From Candidatus Thorarchaeota archaeon (lineage in GTDB: Archaea > Asgardarchaeota > Thorarchaeia > Thorarchaeales > Thorarchaeaceae): a stretch of DNA of 64,000 nt. The notes under the pieces are model-generated. The model worked only from the letters and a program-made list of their open reading frames with translations. It did no database searches and was not told the DNA's origin. How positions within the stretch are numbered: position 1 is the stretch's first letter; each line of letters starts with the position of its first letter. This document shows positions 50,464 to 62,602 of this stretch, piece by piece. The stretch covers positions 192,001 to 256,000 of the forward strand of contig DXJO01000010.1 in NCBI GenBank assembly GCA_019057475.1, read 5' to 3'. A program made the translations under genes and the position numbers.

Positions 50464-53400
50464 CTAGAGCTCTTCATCCACTGGTGGCAGAAGGGCTTCG
50501 AGTGCAGACTTGGAGAGTTTCCCGAGTTCTTCCACTCCAACCGCTTCCTTGATTTCTGGAGGTAGGAGATTGATTAGGTCCCTCTTCGTTAACCGCTTCT
50601 TGAGCCTAGTTTTCGACTCTTCAGTTTCGGGTTCGACGTCGGGCTCTGACTCGAGAATCGCTTCTTCCACTGGTTCGATTTTAAGCGTATCAAGGCTCAC
50701 CTCATCAATCACCGGCACAATCTCAGCGCCTTCGTCAGCAATCTTGGAGAGCGATTTCTCCCTGGTATGCCTACCACGCATGATTGTCGATACTCTTGAA
50801 ACCCCCTTCGCCATCCTTGAAGATACGAAGGGAACGATTACTAGGAACACCACAGGCATTAGCACGATGACACCCAGAGAGTAGCTTCTCAGGAAGTCCA
50901 TGGTGAGTACCGTAGTTCCAGTGAGAACTACAAGGAACATGAAGAACTTCATACGTATAGATGAACTCATCTTCTCCACAAGGTCAACGCACTCTTGTTC
51001 CACAACAACTGGTGGTGTCCCCAATACAGCCATCTCTTGGATTCGCATGAGTCCCTTGCCAATCTCCCTGTAGAGGTTCAATACGACTACAACTATTGAC
51101 GAGATATATGCGGCGAATATTGTGAGCATTATGGTAGGAATGGCAACTTCGCCAAAGTGAAAGACATTCTGCAGCACGTAGAATTCCAGCCACTCGATGT
51201 GCTTACCCCACTCGAATATCTGTACGATTACAATGGGAACGAATATCAGATGCCAGAGTCCAAGAATCATCCGTTTCTTGCCAATTTTCTGTGTGCTTCG
51301 GATTGTTGAGCTTGCGTCTCTGTATAGCCAGATGCCGTACAATATGAGTGAAATACCAAGAAGCAAGATGCTTTCTGCCACTGCAAGGCCATAATCCCCG
51401 GCTCCTGCAGATAAGTAGGAATGAAGAACTGTCAATCCGGCCATGCCCACGACACCAAGATAGAGGTAGTCCAATTTTCGGATTCCCTGTATCAGTATCT
51501 CCTGGGTTCCTCTAGTGATCGACAATCCGGATGAGATTCTGAAGTAGACAAGCATTCCAAGGAAGCTGACTAGGAACGAGATTGCAGCAAGGTAGCCAAA
51601 TGATTCGGCATCTAGTGATAACTGTGGAACTGCCACAACTATATTGACCGCTGCCTCGTCTTGGTTGGCGATGCATGTTGCTCCGTGAGCTTCAACTACA
51701 ATGTCCTCCACACCAAAGCCCTGGTCTGCCACTAAGAAATTCACGGAGTACTTTCCGCTATTGGGTATTTCCACAGCATCCTTTGTTTGATTCTGGAATG
51801 TGATGGTAATGGCAAGATTCAACATTAGGTTCCCGTATTTGTCTGTGGCTTCAACTGTGATGTTGAGTTGCTCTCCTTGTTGAGGCTCTTGGGGCCAAAA
51901 TTCTATGCGGAAATTCAACTCGGCCAGGATCTTCACTGTTCCTCTAACTGTCGTATCCTGTGCGAAGTACGTATGACTCACCATCAGAGTCCAATTGTAT
52001 GTTCTTGCGGCCCAGCCTGCAGTTGGTACATTGTATGAATAGGTTCCGTTATGTAGGTCGTTCAGCATGAATAATGATTCATGAATGAGAACTGACACAG
52101 AACTATCATTCATGGCATTGCCAAGCATGTCCTTTAGTTCTACAACAAAGAGTACAGAATCATTTCCCTGTACGTGCAACTGACCTTCCGTTGGTGACAT
52201 CATTGTAATCATAACGTCACTCTTCACTGGAATCACAGTAGTCAGGGTTTTTTGGGCTATGTGTGGCCCTGAAACGGTTACATTGAGAGTATACGAATCC
52301 GGTGGCAACAGCGGAAGGAATGTCCAAGTCTGGTTGTAGAAGGTGGAGCTGCCCGATGTGTTATATTGGTTCCCAAAGCTGATGACATAGTCAAAGTCAT
52401 TCACTGGGTTGCCGTACTGGTCGGTGACAATGATCTCAAATGTCACATTCTGGTTGTTCAGAACCGTTGAGGGCTTAGTAGTCACTGCAATATATGCATT
52501 CCCTGTTATCGAGAAGCTTACAGCTAGCTGCTGGGTGTTCATGAAGCTCTGAGAAACAGTGATCTGTGCGAGATACTCTCCTGGCGGAAAGCTAATAGTG
52601 GCAACTGTGACCGTATAGATGCCTGGTGATGCTTCGACAAGCGCAATAGTGCTACCATATAGAACCAAATCGACATCAGCTTCTGTGATGTTGCTGAAGA
52701 TTTCATCCTGCACATGAACAACGAATTGGATTGGGTTTCCCTGCGCAAAGGACGCCTCGTCCGTTGGCGCAAGTATACGGGCTGATACAACTCCTTGGAC
52801 ATCGATACTGAAGTCGAATGTTGAGAATTGTAGATGTGTTCCGTTCAAGGTCATACCCAACCAGTACGCTCCAGGTGTGAAGCTCGGGTCTACCGTCCAA
52901 GAGAGTCTGTAGGAATTGGATGTCCCCGATTTATTGTAGACTCCGGCGAAATCAAGAGTGTAGTTGAAGTTTGATATTGGGTTTCCGTAGCGGTCAGTGA
53001 TGGTAAAGTTGAAGGTGACATTCAGCTTGTTCTGGACTGGGAATGGTATTGATGTCAATGCGACATCCGCCTCTCCAACTACGGCCAAGCCATGTGCAGT
53101 CTGCCCCTCGTGCAGGTAGGTATGTCCTGCAGTAACTAGAACTGTGTGTTCTCCTAGAGCATAGCCCACGGTGTCAAAGGTCACCGAATAGGTTCCGTCG
53201 CCATTGTCTTGGAAGGCAAGACTGCTAGGACTGATTGCTATCACCGTAGCACCTATCACAGGACTGCCTATCCAGTCACTCAGACTGACGGTGAGTACCG
53301 TAGAATCCGTCTGATTGACGACCCACCCTAGCGACGAGTCAATTGTCATATATGCATCTGAGTACACATAGACATCATAGATGTCAGACCTTGCATTCCC

Positions 53401-56400
53401 AAAGGTGGCGTTCACGTAGATGGTGAAGCTGTTGACCCCGTGAGAAAAGTTGGCCAAAGCAGTGACTCTGAACTCTCCAGCTGAAATCTGAACAGCAGGA
53501 TATATGACTCCGCTGACCTCAGCAGTTATGTTCAGTCCTTCTGGGACAGTGCTGTAGATGTCATAGACGAATACAGATATGTTGAAGTTAGATCCCGCTT
53601 CAGCGGTGCCAATGACGCTCACAGATGGATACAGGTCACCAATAACACCAAGATAGAACTGGTCAAATCTGCTGTTCTGCACGTACGTATGCGACACGAG
53701 AATCTCACACGAGTAGTTGCCTACTGGTAGGGACGCACTCTCATTGAGTAGATACCGTCCGGGTTCTATCTCCGAGAGAGTGAACTCCGTTGTGCCAAAG
53801 TCTAGAGCAACCGTTGCATTCGTGATATCATTGCCGAAGGGGTCTGTGATGTTCAACCAGATGGTGAAATACTCATCCTGGTTCACGAGTTCAGGTACGC
53901 TTCCCGAGATAGTTAAATCGTCTGCGAGAACTGAAACCGAAGCCGTATCAGATGCCGCTGCTGTCGCAAATGGGTGGTCCGCGGATGCTAGCACCGGGTG
54001 ACTTCCTGGAGCCAACGTAATGCTTTGTACCAATCTGTAGTAGGACTCACCCAAGTACTCTGTCGTGTAGTTTGTGCTGTCAAGTGCTATTGTGACATTG
54101 GCGTCCGTGACTTTTCCTCCAATACTGTCTGTTACGGTGACATTCACCTGGAGGTCTTCTCCCTGGGCAACCTGTGGCTGGACAAACAGGGTGACTGTAA
54201 GAGGCGACTCAACCCTCAGTGCGTTTGTGTGCGTTTCTGTGCAGGAGTCATAGTGCTGATGATTGACCGAGTGTGTTAGATTGACGAGCCCAATAGGCCA
54301 GTTCGGGACAATCGTTGTAGTGTAACGTTCCATCATGTCATCATATACTAGCCCCATCGTCTGCTCAGCCGTCCCAGCCCCAAACTCATATTCGACCACC
54401 AAAGATACTGAGGCGTCATAAACTGGCTCATCATACACATTCCAGACGGTCGTATTAGCCCACAGACTACTCCCCTGGATTGTAATGCTGGATTCTAGGG
54501 CAAAGGTAGCATTTAGTACGTAAAGCAGGTTGATGTTGCGAATTGTTGCCTGTGAATAGCGGGCTCGTAGGATCGGGAACGCCGCGATCTCCTCACCTGC
54601 TCCGATGTCAGTACTAGTAACACCAACCATGTTGAAGGTCATTCCAACGACTGCCCGGTAATCTACTTCTCCCTCGAAGCTGACGGCAGTCAACCTGTCA
54701 TCTGAGGTGGCGATAACAAACTCGTCCGCACCGTCGCCGTCATAGTCTAGTACAACCGTGCTCAGAGGTATTGCGTCACTGATGTAGGTACTCCACTGCT
54801 CCGGCTCTGGTTGCGCAAGGTCATGAAGTGATAGGTTCCCGTTTTCCTTGAATATGAAGATCTCCTGAACGCCGTCGTCGTCAAGGTCGTGTGGCACCAA
54901 CATTCTGATGTGATTATTTGAGGTTTCATAGACTGGTGCATCCCCGACCTGTACGGTCTGGTCATCGACAAAGCAGAGGTAGTTTGTAGGAGTGTCACCG
55001 GACCATGCTGTATAGAGGACTAGAAACTGCTCACTTAAGTGACTGGAATTCAGATATGGAAATATATCCATGGGCCAATCATCCACAGTACCCCCAGGTG
55101 ACACGAAGTCCAGTGTTTTGAGCAGTGTCGAATTGTACGCCTGAATGATATCAACCATCTTGTTCTCCCTCAATATGCCTAGCTGCGGCCGCGTACCTGA
55201 TATTGTGGCATAGGCCATTCCTACCACCAGTCCATTCTCGGGAAGATCGACATCTGTCTGTGAAGAGAGGTCACTTTCTACTCTGAATATGGAGGTCTTC
55301 GTGTCGTTACCTGCCACAAAGTGGATTTCATCTAGTCCGTCCTCATCATCGTCGAAGATCTTCAGAGGGTGGTAGGTGTTTGCTGGCGGTCTCGTAAAAG
55401 TAGCATTTTTCCATGACGTGCGATTGGACCCATGAAGGATCCAGAAGCGAGTGTGTGTGTCGTTGTATCCTGCCAGAATTGGGTCCAGAACTGTGTCGCC
55501 ATCTTGCATTCCCGTGTATACCTCGAAGCTTTCCCTGTATGTCACATTGTGGATTTCGAATTCGAGTATGTTTGTACCATTGGTAGCAACGGCTCTCAGA
55601 GTTGCAGTATGCTTTAGAGTTTCCCGTGTCACAAAATAGAGAATCTCTTCAGCCATTGACGTGTTGCCCGGAGCCATGACATGTCTGTGACCTTGGTCAA
55701 CGGTTGCGTTGTAGAAGTATCCGTCACCGAAATGGTCCTCCACGGTGAGAGTTTCTGGATTCGTGAAGTTCCCATATGAGTAGACGTTGAGATATGGATC
55801 CATGACCTCGATGTAATAGTCATAGTTTCCTGCCGTAAGGTCTGTTGTGATGTACAGGTACTTATCGTTGGGAGCCTTGATCATCTCGTTCCCAACGAAT
55901 GAGGTGACAGGTCCTCCACCTGTGGGTCTAATGAACAACGTAGCATGATCTATTGGGAGATCATCTGTGGCTGTTAGTTCAACCTTGAAGTAGCTGTCAT
56001 AGATGGTGGGGTGTGATGGATACAGGGGGTCGAGTGTAACGTCAGGGGCCGTCGTGTCGCTGAGAAGTATTGAGATCTGATCGGTAAGGGCCACCATATC
56101 CTCTCTGCCATCACCGTCTATGTCGAATGTCAGCACTTGGCGGAATGGCCCGGGAACTCTGTACTCCTCATATCCGGTTTCGCCAGTGCTTCCTCTAATC
56201 AGTGTCAGCTGATCGCGAGGCCCCGAGATTGTTATATCAGAATACGTGTCTGAGTCAAGCCTTGCAGTCGCGAACCCCCTGAAGTCTAGGCTAGTTGACT
56301 CTTCCATAGACTGTCCAATCAGTGTCCCATCACTTCCATCGACCACCCACAGGAAGTACCTCATCCAAGGAACAACAACCAAATCCTCTTGAGTGTCCTC

Positions 56401-57390
56401 ATTGAAGAAGCCTGCCTTGACATAGCATGCGTCGTAGTACTCAGGGATGGGTGTGATATAGTGGAGCGTCATGTTCGCATGATATGAAGCAAGGAAGCTC
56501 TTCACGCCCATCAGACTCATGACTGTGACCGCAAAATGGTCTAGCTCGTCATCATACGCGTAACTTGCGAGGTCAACACCCTCCACATGAGCTGAAGACG
56601 AAACACCTCCCAGTCTGGTGCCATTGCCAGCTATCACCGTGACGTTGGCTATGGGTTGAGACAATATATCGAACGTGTTATAGAGTATAGCAATCTCCTG
56701 TTGGTTGCTTGCAGAGAAGTTCCCCACACAGGCCCGCTTGATACGGCCAAAGGGATTGTAGACGCCCAGTTCACTACCATCCGTGAGGTCCATGATTCGG
56801 ACTGTATGGTCGTTGTAGACTGCAACATCAGTCTGACCATCATCGCTGAAGTTTCCGATTACTATCTCAATGGGGTCGATGACATCGCAGAAATGCCCCG
56901 TGACAGTGCCAGCGTCGAAGTCCACCACTACAAGATTCAAGAGAGTGGAGTTGTGCTGCATAAACAGGAACTCGGTGTAGCCATCACCATCAAGGTCTGC
57001 CCCAGTCAGAGTATTATGAAACACATATCCGCCTGAGATTACCAACGAATCGTTGGTCAGAGTGATGGGGTCCTTGAAGCGGATAGTATCCCCATGGACG
57101 TAGGCGTATCCCGACCCTTGTGGTGTTGTACCAACAGCAATTGACTCAACTGGATATGGTAGCTTGACTTTGATTAGGTTTGATGCAGGAGTCATGTAAC
57201 CATCATTCAACATAGGTGTCGCTCTTGCTCCTTCGGATATCGGAGATGTCGCAAGGAGCGGTGCTGCCAATAACAATAGTAAAAACGCGAGGAAGCCTAG
57301 CTTAACAACTAAGACATCTTGCTTTGAGTATTGACGTGCAATCGGTCTGCGGCTGCTCGTTGAAAATGTCTGGTGCATTACTAGTACCAC
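50464..57390 (-). CDS. Giant cell-surface protein: signal peptide, two FG-GAP/VCBS-type beta-propellers, Ig-like repeats, about 7 TM helices, cytoplasmic tail
   Basis: Hydrophobic N-terminal segment, repeated DxDxDG Ca-binding loops, about 100-aa beta-sandwich repeats (.TD.YGNP...., GxY), many N-x-S/T sequons and a C-terminal polytopic region. Confidence 0.85.
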   Translation of the reverse strand: MVLVMHQTFSTSSRRPIARQYSKQDVLVVKLGFLAFLLLLLAAPLLATSPISEGARATPMLNDGYMTPASNLIKVKLPYPVESIAVGTTPQGSGYAYVHGDTIRFKDPITLTNDSLVISGGYVFHNTLTGADLDGDGYTEFLFMQHNSTLLNLVVVDFDAGTVTGHFCDVIDPIEIVIGNFSDDGQTDVAVYNDHTVRIMDLTDGSELGVYNPFGRIKRACVGNFSASNQQEIAILYNTFDILSQPIANVTVIAGNGTRLGGVSSSAHVEGVDLASYAYDDELDHFAVTVMSLMGVKSFLASYHANMTLHYITPIPEYYDACYVKAGFFNEDTQEDLVVVPWMRYFLWVVDGSDGTLIGQSMEESTSLDFRGFATARLDSDTYSDITISGPRDQLTLIRGSTGETGYEEYRVPGPFRQVLTFDIDGDGREDMVALTDQISILLSDTTAPDVTLDPLYPSHPTIYDSYFKVELTATDDLPIDHATLFIRPTGGGPVTSFVGNEMIKAPNDKYLYITTDLTAGNYDYYIEVMDPYLNVYSYGNFTNPETLTVEDHFGDGYFYNATVDQGHRHVMAPGNTSMAEEILYFVTRETLKHTATLRAVATNGTNILEFEIHNVTYRESFEVYTGMQDGDTVLDPILAGYNDTHTRFWILHGSNRTSWKNATFTRPPANTYHPLKIFDDDEDGLDEIHFVAGNDTKTSIFRVESDLSSQTDVDLPENGLVVGMAYATISGTRPQLGILRENKMVDIIQAYNSTLLKTLDFVSPGGTVDDWPMDIFPYLNSSHLSEQFLVLYTAWSGDTPTNYLCFVDDQTVQVGDAPVYETSNNHIRMLVPHDLDDDGVQEIFIFKENGNLSLHDLAQPEPEQWSTYISDAIPLSTVVLDYDGDGADEFVIATSDDRLTAVSFEGEVDYRAVVGMTFNMVGVTSTDIGAGEEIAAFPILRARYSQATIRNINLLYVLNATFALESSITIQGSSLWANTTVWNVYDEPVYDASVSLVVEYEFGAGTAEQTMGLVYDDMMERYTTTIVPNWPIGLVNLTHSVNHQHYDSCTETHTNALRVESPLTVTLFVQPQVAQGEDLQVNVTVTDSIGGKVTDANVTIALDSTNYTTEYLGESYYRLVQSITLAPGSHPVLASADHPFATAAASDTASVSVLADDLTISGSVPELVNQDEYFTIWLNITDPFGNDITNATVALDFGTTEFTLSEIEPGRYLLNESASLPVGNYSCEILVSHTYVQNSRFDQFYLGVIGDLYPSVSVIGTAEAGSNFNISVFVYDIYSTVPEGLNITAEVSGVIYPAVQISAGEFRVTALANFSHGVNSFTIYVNATFGNARSDIYDVYVYSDAYMTIDSSLGWVVNQTDSTVLTVSLSDWIGSPVIGATVIAISPSSLAFQDNGDGTYSVTFDTVGYALGEHTVLVTAGHTYLHEGQTAHGLAVVGEADVALTSIPFPVQNKLNVTFNFTITDRYGNPISNFNYTLDFAGVYNKSGTSNSYRLSWTVDPSFTPGAYWLGMTLNGTHLQFSTFDFSIDVQGVVSARILAPTDEASFAQGNPIQFVVHVQDEIFSNITEADVDLVLYGSTIALVEASPGIYTVTVATISFPPGEYLAQITVSQSFMNTQQLAVSFSITGNAYIAVTTKPSTVLNNQNVTFEIIVTDQYGNPVNDFDYVISFGNQYNTSGSSTFYNQTWTFLPLLPPDSYTLNVTVSGPHIAQKTLTTVIPVKSDVMITMMSPTEGQLHVQGNDSVLFVVELKDMLGNAMNDSSVSVLIHESLFMLNDLHNGTYSYNVPTAGWAARTYNWTLMVSHTYFAQDTTVRGTVKILAELNFRIEFWPQEPQQGEQLNITVEATDKYGNLMLNLAITITFQNQTKDAVEIPNSGKYSVNFLVADQGFGVEDIVVEAHGATCIANQDEAAVNIVVAVPQLSLDAESFGYLAAISFLVSFLGMLVYFRISSGLSITRGTQEILIQGIRKLDYLYLGVVGMAGLTVLHSYLSAGAGDYGLAVAESILLLGISLILYGIWLYRDASSTIRSTQKIGKKRMILGLWHLIFVPIVIVQIFEWGKHIEWLEFYVLQNVFHFGEVAIPTIMLTIFAAYISSIVVVVLNLYREIGKGLMRIQEMAVLGTPPVVVEQECVDLVEKMSSSIRMKFFMFLVVLTGTTVLTMDFLRSYSLGVIVLMPVVFLVIVPFVSSRMAKGVSRVSTIMRGRHTREKSLSKIADEGAEIVPVIDEVSLDTLKIEPVEEAILESEPDVEPETEESKTRLKKRLTKRDLINLLPPEIKEAVGVEELGKLSKSALEALLPPVDEEL

Positions 57391-57642: not shown

Positions 57643-58083
57643 TCACTCATCGAGGAACTTCGTTGGCACGCTTGCTGCGGTTGACACGAGCTCAGCAGCA
57701 GCCTTTGTGTACCGCATGATTTTGCCCATGTTGTCGCCCTTACCAAGACTGAACTTACGCGACATTAGTCCCTTTATCGGGTCTATCTCTCCAGCAAATA
57801 GCTTCTTCCAATTGGCATAAGTTCCCGAATAGGTAAACTCCGCCTTATCGTCATCCTTTGCCATTCTAGCCTCTCTGCAGTCACCATGCCAGAGGTCTAT
57901 GTAGAGTTTCATAGGCTCTTTGATAATATCCCCGTCGGCGTTGACCTGAAAAATAAAATCGCCTTCCCAGTCGCTCGCAGCGTCTTTGTACGCGGCGTTT
58001 TCATTAAGCAATTCCCAATACTTGGCCACCCACTCTTCAGAGGGGAACAGAAGCTTCTCTTTATTCATCGCAGTAATCTCCAT
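57643..58083 (-). CDS. SCP2 sterol-carrier/lipid-binding domain protein (copy 1)
   Basis: FPSEEW..Y..LLN.N..Y...A.DWEGDF, DLWHG.C, and WKKL..GEIDPIKGLM..K. Confidence 0.85.
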   Translation of the reverse strand: MEITAMNKEKLLFPSEEWVAKYWELLNENAAYKDAASDWEGDFIFQVNADGDIIKEPMKLYIDLWHGDCREARMAKDDDKAEFTYSGTYANWKKLFAGEIDPIKGLMSRKFSLGKGDNMGKIMRYTKAAAELVSTAASVPTKFLDE

Positions 58084-58139
58084 TGTCTACTGTTGACTGT
58101 AATTGAGAATCGAGAGAAAAGCCTTCTGGCTCATGTGTA

Positions 58140-58559
58140 TCATTCATCAGAGAACCTTGTAGGCACTCCTGTTGACGTCGCGACAAGCTCTTGGGCGGCA
58201 CTAATGTAGCGCAACACCTTCACCATGCTTCCTTTGATCTTGAACCTGCGTGAAAGCAATCCCTTGATCGGGCCCATTTCCTGATTAAGGAGTTTCTTCC
58301 AGTTTTCGAGCGTTCCAGAGTAAACAAACTCGGCAGATTCCCCCGGTGCAGCAAGATGAACTGCTCTGCACTTACCATGCCATAAATCTACATACGCTCT
58401 AATCGGTTCTGTCACAGTCTTGCCATCTGAATCAATCTGGAAGATGAAATCGCCTTCCCAGTCTTTTGCCACCTCTTCGTACTGCTGGTTACTGTTGAGG
58501 AGTTCCATGTATCTCTTCATCCAATCCTCGGACAGGAATAGCAGCTTATTCTCGTTCAT
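58140..58559 (-). CDS. SCP2 sterol-carrier/lipid-binding domain protein (copy 2)
   Basis: Clear paralog of 57643-58083, sharing DWEGDFIFQ, DLWHG, YSGT..NWKKL, PIKGL and VPT.F.DE. Confidence 0.85.
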   Translation of the reverse strand: MNENKLLFLSEDWMKRYMELLNSNQQYEEVAKDWEGDFIFQIDSDGKTVTEPIRAYVDLWHGKCRAVHLAAPGESAEFVYSGTLENWKKLLNQEMGPIKGLLSRRFKIKGSMVKVLRYISAAQELVATSTGVPTRFSDE

Positions 58560-60665: not shown

Positions 60666-61589
60666 ATGTCAAACTCAAAGACTGATTTCAACACGATAAT
60701 AGACGACATGATGACAAGCCTTAGACTTGCAGGGGACAATTTTCTCACTTTCTTCCTTGCGGGTCTTGGAATGGCCGCTTTAGCAATTCTGATGATAGTA
60801 GCAATCACGATACCACTCGGTCTCGCAGCTGCTGTTGTCTTTTCTATGGGTCCCACATTCTGGGCTGACATGGGCCCTGGCATGATGACCTTTGCAACAG
60901 CTAACCCTTACCTCGTTGTAGGTCTAGTTGCTTTGATTGCATTGCCTTTTGTGGGTGTTCTCACGACTGTTGTGGGTGCTATCTATGGCATCAGCAAGGA
61001 AGTCGTGGAAGACGGCGAGACTAAGGCTGAGAATGCTTTCTCCTGGTTCAAGCGCAGATTTCTGGCATTTGCAGGTGCAGGGATCATTCAATCCCTGATT
61101 GTAGTAGGACCTATCTTCCTCCTTAGTGCCATGATTTCTCCAACGTTAGGTGGCAGCGTCACCGGCGTTTACTCCGTTCTCCTTGGCGTGTTCGCATTTG
61201 TGTGGGTCTTCATTACTGAAGGACTCCTCTCCATGATGCTCCCTGCAGTTGTCGACGGGAAGAACCCGATTGAAGCACTCCGCGTTTCGGTTAAACTAGG
61301 CATTGATCGATTCGACAGGGTCTTTGGAATCTGGACTGCATACATCGTACTATTTGCGGCGATGGCAGCTCCAGCTTTCTTGGTCGCTTATGGAGTTGGC
61401 TTCACCCCTGGGATGCACATGGCAATTCCTATGATTGCCGTGGTAGCCGGGGGCTGGACCGCGCTAGCTGGTCTGTTACTGGTTGCAATCGTGCTTCCAA
61501 GCATGATTCTAGCCCGCGCACGCGTATATGCAATCCTGACCGGCAAGCGTCTAGCCGCGCCCAAGGCACTTGAGGTGCCAATTGTATAG
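60666..61589 (+). CDS. Polytopic membrane protein (paralog A)
   Basis: About 6 long TM segments. Shares AE..FSW..R.F..F.G.G.I and PA.VDG..PIEA...S...G...FDRVF with the next gene. Confidence 0.8.
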   Translation: MSNSKTDFNTIIDDMMTSLRLAGDNFLTFFLAGLGMAALAILMIVAITIPLGLAAAVVFSMGPTFWADMGPGMMTFATANPYLVVGLVALIALPFVGVLTTVVGAIYGISKEVVEDGETKAENAFSWFKRRFLAFAGAGIIQSLIVVGPIFLLSAMISPTLGGSVTGVYSVLLGVFAFVWVFITEGLLSMMLPAVVDGKNPIEALRVSVKLGIDRFDRVFGIWTAYIVLFAAMAAPAFLVAYGVGFTPGMHMAIPMIAVVAGGWTALAGLLLVAIVLPSMILARARVYAILTGKRLAAPKALEVPIV

Positions 61590-61669
61590 AACAATCGAGT
61601 GGACTTAAAGGGTGCCTACATTCTTGCAGTGCAGGCACTCACCACTCACCTTGTCGAGGTGTCTGAACG

Positions 61670-62602
61670 ATGATGAAGGGTTCGAGCTTTACAATCCTGA
61701 TGGACGATTTGAAGGCGAGCTTCAAGCTTGCGGTTAAGAACATCCTGTCTTTTCTTTTCGGGATGATTGGTGTGATCATTGTCACGGTTCTCTTGATAGC
61801 AGTCATGGCAATAGCAGTCGTACCGTTCGTAGTCCTCTTTCTAGGCATTGAGGGAATGACCAACGCCATTACTCAACTCGCACCGCTCATGGAAACTGAA
61901 AGCGGAGCTGCTATGGTTATTTTCGGATTTGGCATGATTGTAATCTTGCCATTCCTGATTCCGTTCTTCGTTTCCGTAGGTGCGCTCTTTGGGATGGGCA
62001 GAGAGATTGCTGAGAGTGAGGATACAAATGCTGAAGGTGTCTTCTCTTGGTACTCTCGCAAGTTCTTCTCCTTTGTTGGAGGTGGACTAATCATCTTCCT
62101 GATCTCAATGATGCCGTTAGCTCTTCTGATGCTTGCTCTAATTCCAGTGCATGGAGGATCTCCTGGCGGACCATTTGCGTGGGTTCTCCCAGTTGGGGCA
62201 TTCATCTGGTTGACTGTGAGCTTGAGCATGTTGTCAATGACGTACCCAGCCATAGTGGACGGGTATTCACCTATTGAGGCAACGAAGATATCCTTGAGGA
62301 TGGGCTGGACCTACTTTGACCGCGTTTTCTCGACGTTCCTGTCTTTCATTGTGATAATCGTTCTCCTATTCGCACCCTTCGCCATTGGGGCATTTGTGAG
62401 CCTGTCACTGGGCCCAGAATTCCTCGGGCCGCTAGCGCTGTTTGGCGGCTATGTGATGTTAGCCTTTCTCTTCTTAGCTCTGGTTGTGCTCCCTGCTTTC
62501 ATCATATCGCTCAATCGAGTATACATAATCCTAAGCGGAGAAGACATCACACCACCTCCAGAAGATGAACATCCTGATGTTAGCCTCGTGGGAGGGATAT
62601 GA
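61670..62602 (+). CDS. Polytopic membrane protein (paralog B)
   Basis: Tandem paralog of 60666-61589, preceded by a GAGGTG RBS. Confidence 0.8.
   Translation: MMKGSSFTILMDDLKASFKLAVKNILSFLFGMIGVIIVTVLLIAVMAIAVVPFVVLFLGIEGMTNAITQLAPLMETESGAAMVIFGFGMIVILPFLIPFFVSVGALFGMGREIAESEDTNAEGVFSWYSRKFFSFVGGGLIIFLISMMPLALLMLALIPVHGGSPGGPFAWVLPVGAFIWLTVSLSMLSMTYPAIVDGYSPIEATKISLRMGWTYFDRVFSTFLSFIVIIVLLFAPFAIGAFVSLSLGPEFLGPLALFGGYVMLAFLFLALVVLPAFIISLNRVYIILSGEDITPPPEDEHPDVSLVGGI

Follow-up and report, generated by a model that had tools for sequence, protein, structure and literature searches.

The gene considered here is located on the reverse strand of a 64,000-nucleotide (nt) stretch of Candidatus Thorarchaeota DNA (contig DXJO01000010.1, positions 192,001 to 256,000), referred to below as the window. 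An intact open reading frame (ORF) spans 50464-57390 (−), and its probable start is the ATG at 57378, which has a GGTGG element 7 nt ahead of it and yields a product of 2,304 amino acids (aa); the collection's version of the protein is likewise 2,304 aa long. The whole gene (50464..57378, −) is present as a single copy in the genome. Residue numbers (P0001) begin four residues upstream of the ATG start, at the GTG at 57390. The parts of the protein follow the order of signal-peptide-like N-terminus, propeller, one immunoglobulin (Ig)-like spacer, second propeller, ten Ig-like modules, seven helices and a 118-aa tail. An earlier note on this DNA had claimed such a giant layout of two propellers, Ig stalk and seven helices, and the ORF, motif, hydropathy and AlphaFold2 (AF2) analyses bear it out.

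The N-terminus resembles a signal peptide in its hydropathy, with a basic stretch and hydrophobic residues 26-44 (57250..57378, −). Both propellers are putative and were assigned from repeat motifs. The first (residues 65-445; 56056..57198, −) contains seven Ca-loop repeats, with a spacing of 44-54 aa among the first seven motifs, and its Pfam FG-GAP match is weak. It is followed by the single Ig-like spacer (residues 446-550; 55741..56055, −), the conservation of which is above that of the propellers, and by the second propeller (residues 551-960; 54511..55740, −). All ten Ca-loop motifs listed in the earlier note are in place; the second propeller that had been proposed from them retains three strict loops but is degenerate, and about three additional, partial D-rich loops are apparent from the family consensus. 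A strict DxDxDG-type pattern occurs three times in each propeller region, versus a mean of 0.01 in shuffled sequences (0 of 2000 shuffles), and zero times in the Ig stalk. The stalk (residues 961-1925; 51616..54510, −) comprises ten Ig-like modules of 90-105 aa (n=10), in agreement with the 9-10 estimated previously; its length differs between homologues, which are approximately 1,640-2,960 aa in size. Pfam Big_1, Invasin_D3 and FG-GAP_3 give weak matches in the ectodomain, the last at residues 835-892, and the entire ectodomain carries 50 N-glycosylation sequons.

The seven-helix membrane domain (residues 1926-2200; 50791..51615, −) was delineated by hydropathy, AF2 modeling and profile searches. 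In the hydropathy analysis, six helices are strong and transmembrane helix 2 (TM2) is weaker, and the AF2 model, based on 122 sequences, contains seven long helices with a predicted local distance difference test (pLDDT) score of 83.7 and a predicted template modeling (pTM) score of 0.78; the two approaches thus agree on the seven helices counted earlier, with no drop to far fewer. Lysine and arginine residues number 3, 6, 6 and 7 in loops 1, 3 and 5 and after TM7, versus 0, 1 and 1 in loops 2, 4 and 6, which indicates an N-out/C-in topology. The description of the connecting loops as short or basic needs correction for loop 5-6, which is not short but forms a 42-aa cytoplasmic helical hairpin (residues 2107-2148; 50947..51072, −) according to the AF2 model and the alignment; in the model, TM5 and TM6 run unbroken into this hairpin. 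On the outer side, a cap consisting of a short helix and a β-hairpin is located between TM4 and TM5 (51136..51207, −) in the AF2 model and the cross-clade alignment, and its G, W, F, Y, G and P residues are kept across Asgard clades. Also kept in all clades are the Pro preceding TM1, the outer cap, which leads into TM5, T/S/S in TM5 and, on the cytoplasmic side, Y1949, Y1977, D2025 and the hairpin residues Y2107, K2140 and K2148, in addition to F2152 and P2179. All 92 sequences examined share identical polar residues at the cytoplasmic face, several of which are retained in all three clades. A homodimer prediction scores 0.07 against a mark of 0.42, which is not evidence in either direction.

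The tail begins with a basic juxtamembrane stretch, followed by an acidic variable linker (together residues 2191-2264; 50599..50820, −) and a conserved C-terminal helical module of approximately 36 aa (residues 2265-2303; 50482..50598, −). An acidic tail of about 120 aa had been described; the length stands at 118 aa, but the purely acidic character does not, the acidic part (16 D/E in 46 aa) being only one of three. The module is present in 35 of 35 long-group homologues and was detected in 70 of 80 family genomes. In Pfam, CAAP1 is its best match (E 0.0014), with HeH, SAP and SAM weaker and all below the cut-offs.

A comparison of the parts across homologues reveals that the membrane domain and the tail module are the best-conserved parts of the family. 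The identity of the TM domain is 42-81% in most Thorarchaeota homologues versus about 24-57% for the propellers, and relative to distant paralogues TM4-TM7 are 60-72% identical versus 25-27% for the propellers. One same-genus pair gives a ratio of nonsynonymous to synonymous substitution rates (dN/dS) of 0.16 for the base, compared with 0.22 for the last Ig modules; for the tail module this ratio is uninformative (39 codons, dS 0.07). Both the identities and the residues that are invariant across clades establish that the TM region is conserved rather than unconserved.

A search of 1.84 billion representatives returned 104 relatives. Close homologues bearing names are mostly from Ca. Thorarchaeota, with the remainder under other Asgard labels, and the labels of the named members comprise Thor-, Promethe/Loki-, Sigyn-, Hel-, Sif-, Odin- and Hod-. 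The profile used was Thor-weighted and the first look loose, so that distant copies may have been missed; it detected the domain in 69 of 301 Asgard genomes from 11 families, often with two paralogues in Thorarchaeota. Outliers are a Theionarchaea fragment and a protein labelled Bathyarchaeota, which both come from short contigs and may have been misbinned, and two contigs titled Nitrososphaerota belong to genomes (G021 and G100) that are both in the phylum of the window. No stand-alone copy of the base is present among the relatives found; the two short matches that were checked look like split genes, each directly adjoining an upstream gene on the same strand.

The conserved base carries different heads and tails. 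In a tree of the TM2-7 core (FastTree, midpoint-rooted, which gives grouping and not the order of events), a single clade unites the proteins that end in a double zinc ribbon, and almost all of its members that were checked have BNR (Asp-box) heads in place of FG-GAP. The combination of BNR head and double zinc-ribbon tail is found in Loki/Sigyn-type proteins, and the FG-GAP head in Thorarchaeota; the TM domain is fused to other ectodomains in Asgard genomes, a check that the earlier note had proposed. The helical-module tail defines one Thorarchaeota clade, in which the gene at 50464..57378 is included, and an intermediate group has mixed heads and no recognizable tail. On one Promethearchaeota contig (L065:8001-17860), a seven-helix/zinc-ribbon gene is immediately followed by a second BNR-bearing gene, of 1,508 aa.

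In the same genome, the helical module is found in two other proteins, namely a 3,643-aa single-pass surface giant with an acidic linker and the module at its end (L070, G000 C42:422337 onward, +) and a 394-aa soluble HEAT-repeat protein with 2-3 module copies (L069:5407-6591 = G000 C56:47406-48587). The other carriers that were checked are membrane proteins with the module at the end (20/20), 19 of them large and sequon-rich and nearly all single-pass. Of 43 family genomes, 41 contain the HEAT gene, as does one genome of the same order, and all 20 orthologues checked contain 2-3 module copies each; none was retrieved from other Asgard families with the query used. Some HEAT orthologues (L115 and L109) have an additional helix-hairpin-helix-looking insertion between the modules. 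The HEAT gene is convergent with the gene of a von Willebrand factor A (vWA) protein, and an SPFH-NfeD pair is two genes off.

In the window, two tandem SCP2 sterol-carrier-like genes (57643-58559, −) are located just upstream of the giant gene on the same strand, and nitronate monooxygenase-like, alcohol dehydrogenase-like and aldehyde oxidoreductase-like genes lie downstream of it. This SCP2/oxidoreductase-like setting is absent around the homologues examined. Farther along, a tandem pair of paralogous membrane proteins of approximately 310 aa is followed by a helix-turn-helix regulator (60666-62602, +).

The protein may be a giant glycosylated adhesin or recognition protein in which the seven-helix base is a coupling platform and not a plain anchor, a reading on which our confidence is evenly balanced. 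The Ca-loop propellers on the Ig stalk would bind a surface, a glycan or a partner cell, and the base, by means of the outer cap, TM5 and the TM5-TM6 hairpin, would expose a surface on which a cytoplasmic partner could dock. In the Thorarchaeota clade, the terminal module would bind other copies of its kind, the likeliest being those in the conserved HEAT protein, and this docking may cluster or tether surface proteins from the inside. A coupling role of base and tail is proposed because the base is conserved, the heads and tails are exchanged and the module is shared with the HEAT protein. The contact-sensing receptor suggested in the earlier note is made more credible by the exchange of cytoplasmic domains and by the conserved cytoplasmic-face residues but remains an inference, as do the signaling, gating and adhesion attributed to the protein. 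A more specific version, which we regard as possible but rather doubtful, is that the proteins constitute an Asgard family of modular adhesion receptors in its own right, in which an undescribed seven-helix transducer, found in several Asgard classes, relays a contact or a force sensed by exchangeable propeller heads, via TM5 and the hairpin, to exchangeable tails; these tails would be the double zinc ribbon or the helical module, the latter binding homotypically and being read by a scaffold of HEAT repeats, as part of the same joint proposal.

Several observations weigh against a coupling role. Polytopic domains are usually more conserved than ectodomains, and the conservation of the base therefore indicates a fold and not signaling. 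The neighborhoods of the homologues are not conserved, name no partner and contain no conserved signaling genes. The gene is patchy, being present in 49 of 76 genomes of its own family and in 17 of 90 good-quality genomes of the phylum, with none found by the Thor-weighted profile in several families. Many homologues carry neither type of tail, and many end soon after TM7. Although the mean net charge of the module is −4.6 in HEAT proteins versus −1.6 and −2.0 in surface proteins, both classes are net acidic and the comparison counts related sequences; a shared module does not by itself demonstrate that two proteins bind each other.

The same neighborhoods and the homologues that stop soon after TM7, together with the lack of a stand-alone base or an enzymatic output domain among the proteins found, are also consistent with a passive base, in which the seven helices would hold, space or cluster a long stalk in a wall-less cell and pass nothing inward. 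A plain anchor, however, is what most other surface giants encoded in this genome appear to have: more than 30 sequon-rich ORFs exceed 1,000 aa, mostly with a single C-terminal hydrophobic helix, and the gene at 50464..57378 is the only giant that ends in seven helices. The invariant cytoplasmic-face residues, the 42-aa hairpin and the occurrence of two distinct interaction-type tails on the same base also argue against passivity, which we consider on the whole unlikely.

A fusion of an adhesin with a gated pore or transporter, perhaps oligomeric and with a polycystin-like logic in which contact would let ions or small molecules through, might be suggested by the conserved T/S/S in TM5 and by a TM4 His that is invariant within Thorarchaeota. 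Structures similar to the long TM5-TM6 hairpin are generic hairpins, c-ring and MscS helices among them (Z 7.5-7.9), which does not discriminate. No mid-membrane charge is conserved between clades in the cross-clade alignment, and no Pfam or NCBIfam family, including the transporter, channel and anchor families raised as a possibility in the earlier note, matches the base consistently over the 122 members; this explanation is improbable.

Equally little credence is given to a far-diverged eukaryotic membrane fold, either a G-protein-coupled receptor (GPCR) or an Oxa1-family (TMCO1/EMC3/GET1) three-helix insertion core in TM5-7. A GPCR shares the N-out seven-helix topology and the long loop 5-6, the profile of TM5 matches TM5 of the β1-adrenoceptor at E 0.14, and the top Foldseek row is an mGlu receptor (E 0.053). 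However, the seven-helix model has no Foldseek match that reaches E 0.001, the best Atlas TM is 0.40, and the best VIA Z values (10.3-10.7) belong to de novo three-helix bundles that cover TM2-4 only. GPCR structures superpose on the predicted model with a root-mean-square deviation (rmsd) of 14-16 Å over 217-241 residues (Z 7.2-8.2, Foldseek TM ~0.2), a fit that leans against GPCR-like helix packing as far as a predicted model goes. The class A set (DRY, CWxP, NPxxY and the disulfide between TM3 and extracellular loop 2) is absent from the alignment, in which the end of TM3 reads Y-R-D and no Cys is conserved. Kinship with Oxa1/TMCO1 is not supported: hhalign places TM5-hairpin-TM6 in register with the DUF106 helix-coil-helix (P 0.002, probability 13%) and one of the 122 members matches PF01956 (E 0.005), but when the TM5-6 profile is run against the 6,171 ORFs of the genome, the DUF106 genes come only 9th and 223rd (best E 3.7), which is not above the genome background, and a search with the TM5-7 model returns generic hairpins in the top rows and no Oxa1-family chain among the top 50. 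The genome contains two EMC3/TMCO1 (DUF106) paralogues (L001:1489-2034, −; L002:1492-2025, −), and two are also present in 15 of 17 sampled family genomes.

The proposed coupling adhesin bears on observations of living Asgards. Asgards in culture adhere to surfaces and move over them by crawling, and the proteins that decorate their membranes have been proposed to form contacts (PMC13716822); the passages seen of that article name no such contact protein. The present family supplies a concrete candidate, with a testable head, base, hairpin and tail and a candidate HEAT partner, and homologues occur in Loki-type lineages, which are lineages with cultures. No published description of the seven-helix family was found; clusters named '7TM' and 'class C GPCR' that a 2026 preprint (10.64898/2026.10.28.762692) lists for Asgards may or may not correspond to it. 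At minimum, the base is an undescribed membrane domain, and it cautions against naming Asgard seven-helix proteins GPCRs on topology alone. If signaling were true, adhesion-coupled seven-helix receptors would have arisen in the nearest relatives of eukaryotes without descent from GPCRs.

Among known systems, adhesion GPCRs (class B2, such as latrophilin, CELSR and ADGRV1) are similar in their large adhesive ectodomain, N-out/C-in seven helices, long loop 5-6 and C-terminal tail. The archaeal protein differs in that the locus matches none of the 7tm_1/2/3 profiles and, even at E 1, not the GPS profile PF01825; an Ig module extends up to TM1, with only one Pro conserved in that stretch. The rmsd of its predicted model to GPCRs is approximately 15 Å, and no G-alpha (PF00503) was detected in the 96%-complete genome. 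The likeness to integrin alpha and adhesion GPCRs is accordingly one of layout, as the earlier note had held.

Integrin alpha places a seven-repeat Ca-loop propeller on Ig-like legs, a layout resembled by the putative first propeller and Ig modules here, and the family propeller profile matches the alpha-V propeller weakly (E 0.004, about 100 positions); Ca-loop propellers of this sort are frequent in prokaryotes. The archaeal protein, however, has a second putative propeller and ten more Ig modules, spans the membrane with seven helices where integrin alpha has one, and lacks a GFFKR tail. No membrane-bound integrin-beta partner was found, as the sole PF00362 match in the genome is a vWA protein of 387 aa (L143:754-1917, G000 C56 near 55565-55930, −), which exceeds the Pfam Integrin_beta cut-off and has no signal peptide or TM apparent by eye. 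Its gene and the HEAT gene lie some 7 kb apart, and the match probably reflects a vWA domain of generic type.

Giant Ig-repeat adhesins (invasin/intimin of the Big_1 type, SiiE and LapA) also carry a head on an Ig stalk of variable number, whereas the archaeal root is a conserved polytopic domain with cytoplasmic extensions and not a helix, lipid, sortase tag or barrel. Bacterial 7TM-DISM sensors combine an extracellular module, seven helices and a swappable cytoplasmic domain; at this locus, no match to PF07695 and no kinase, cyclase or phosphodiesterase output was detected. For microbial rhodopsins, the retinal-type Lys in TM7 (residues 2172-2190) is absent from the alignment. Polycystin-1 shares a giant Ig-like ectodomain, polytopic base and cytoplasmic tail but has 11 helices and not 7, and no GAIN, PLAT or TRP-like region was detected here. 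The protein thus has the layout of an adhesion receptor, and membership in any known family is not supported. If the transducer proposal were true, the family would represent an independent answer to the problem addressed by integrins and adhesion GPCRs.

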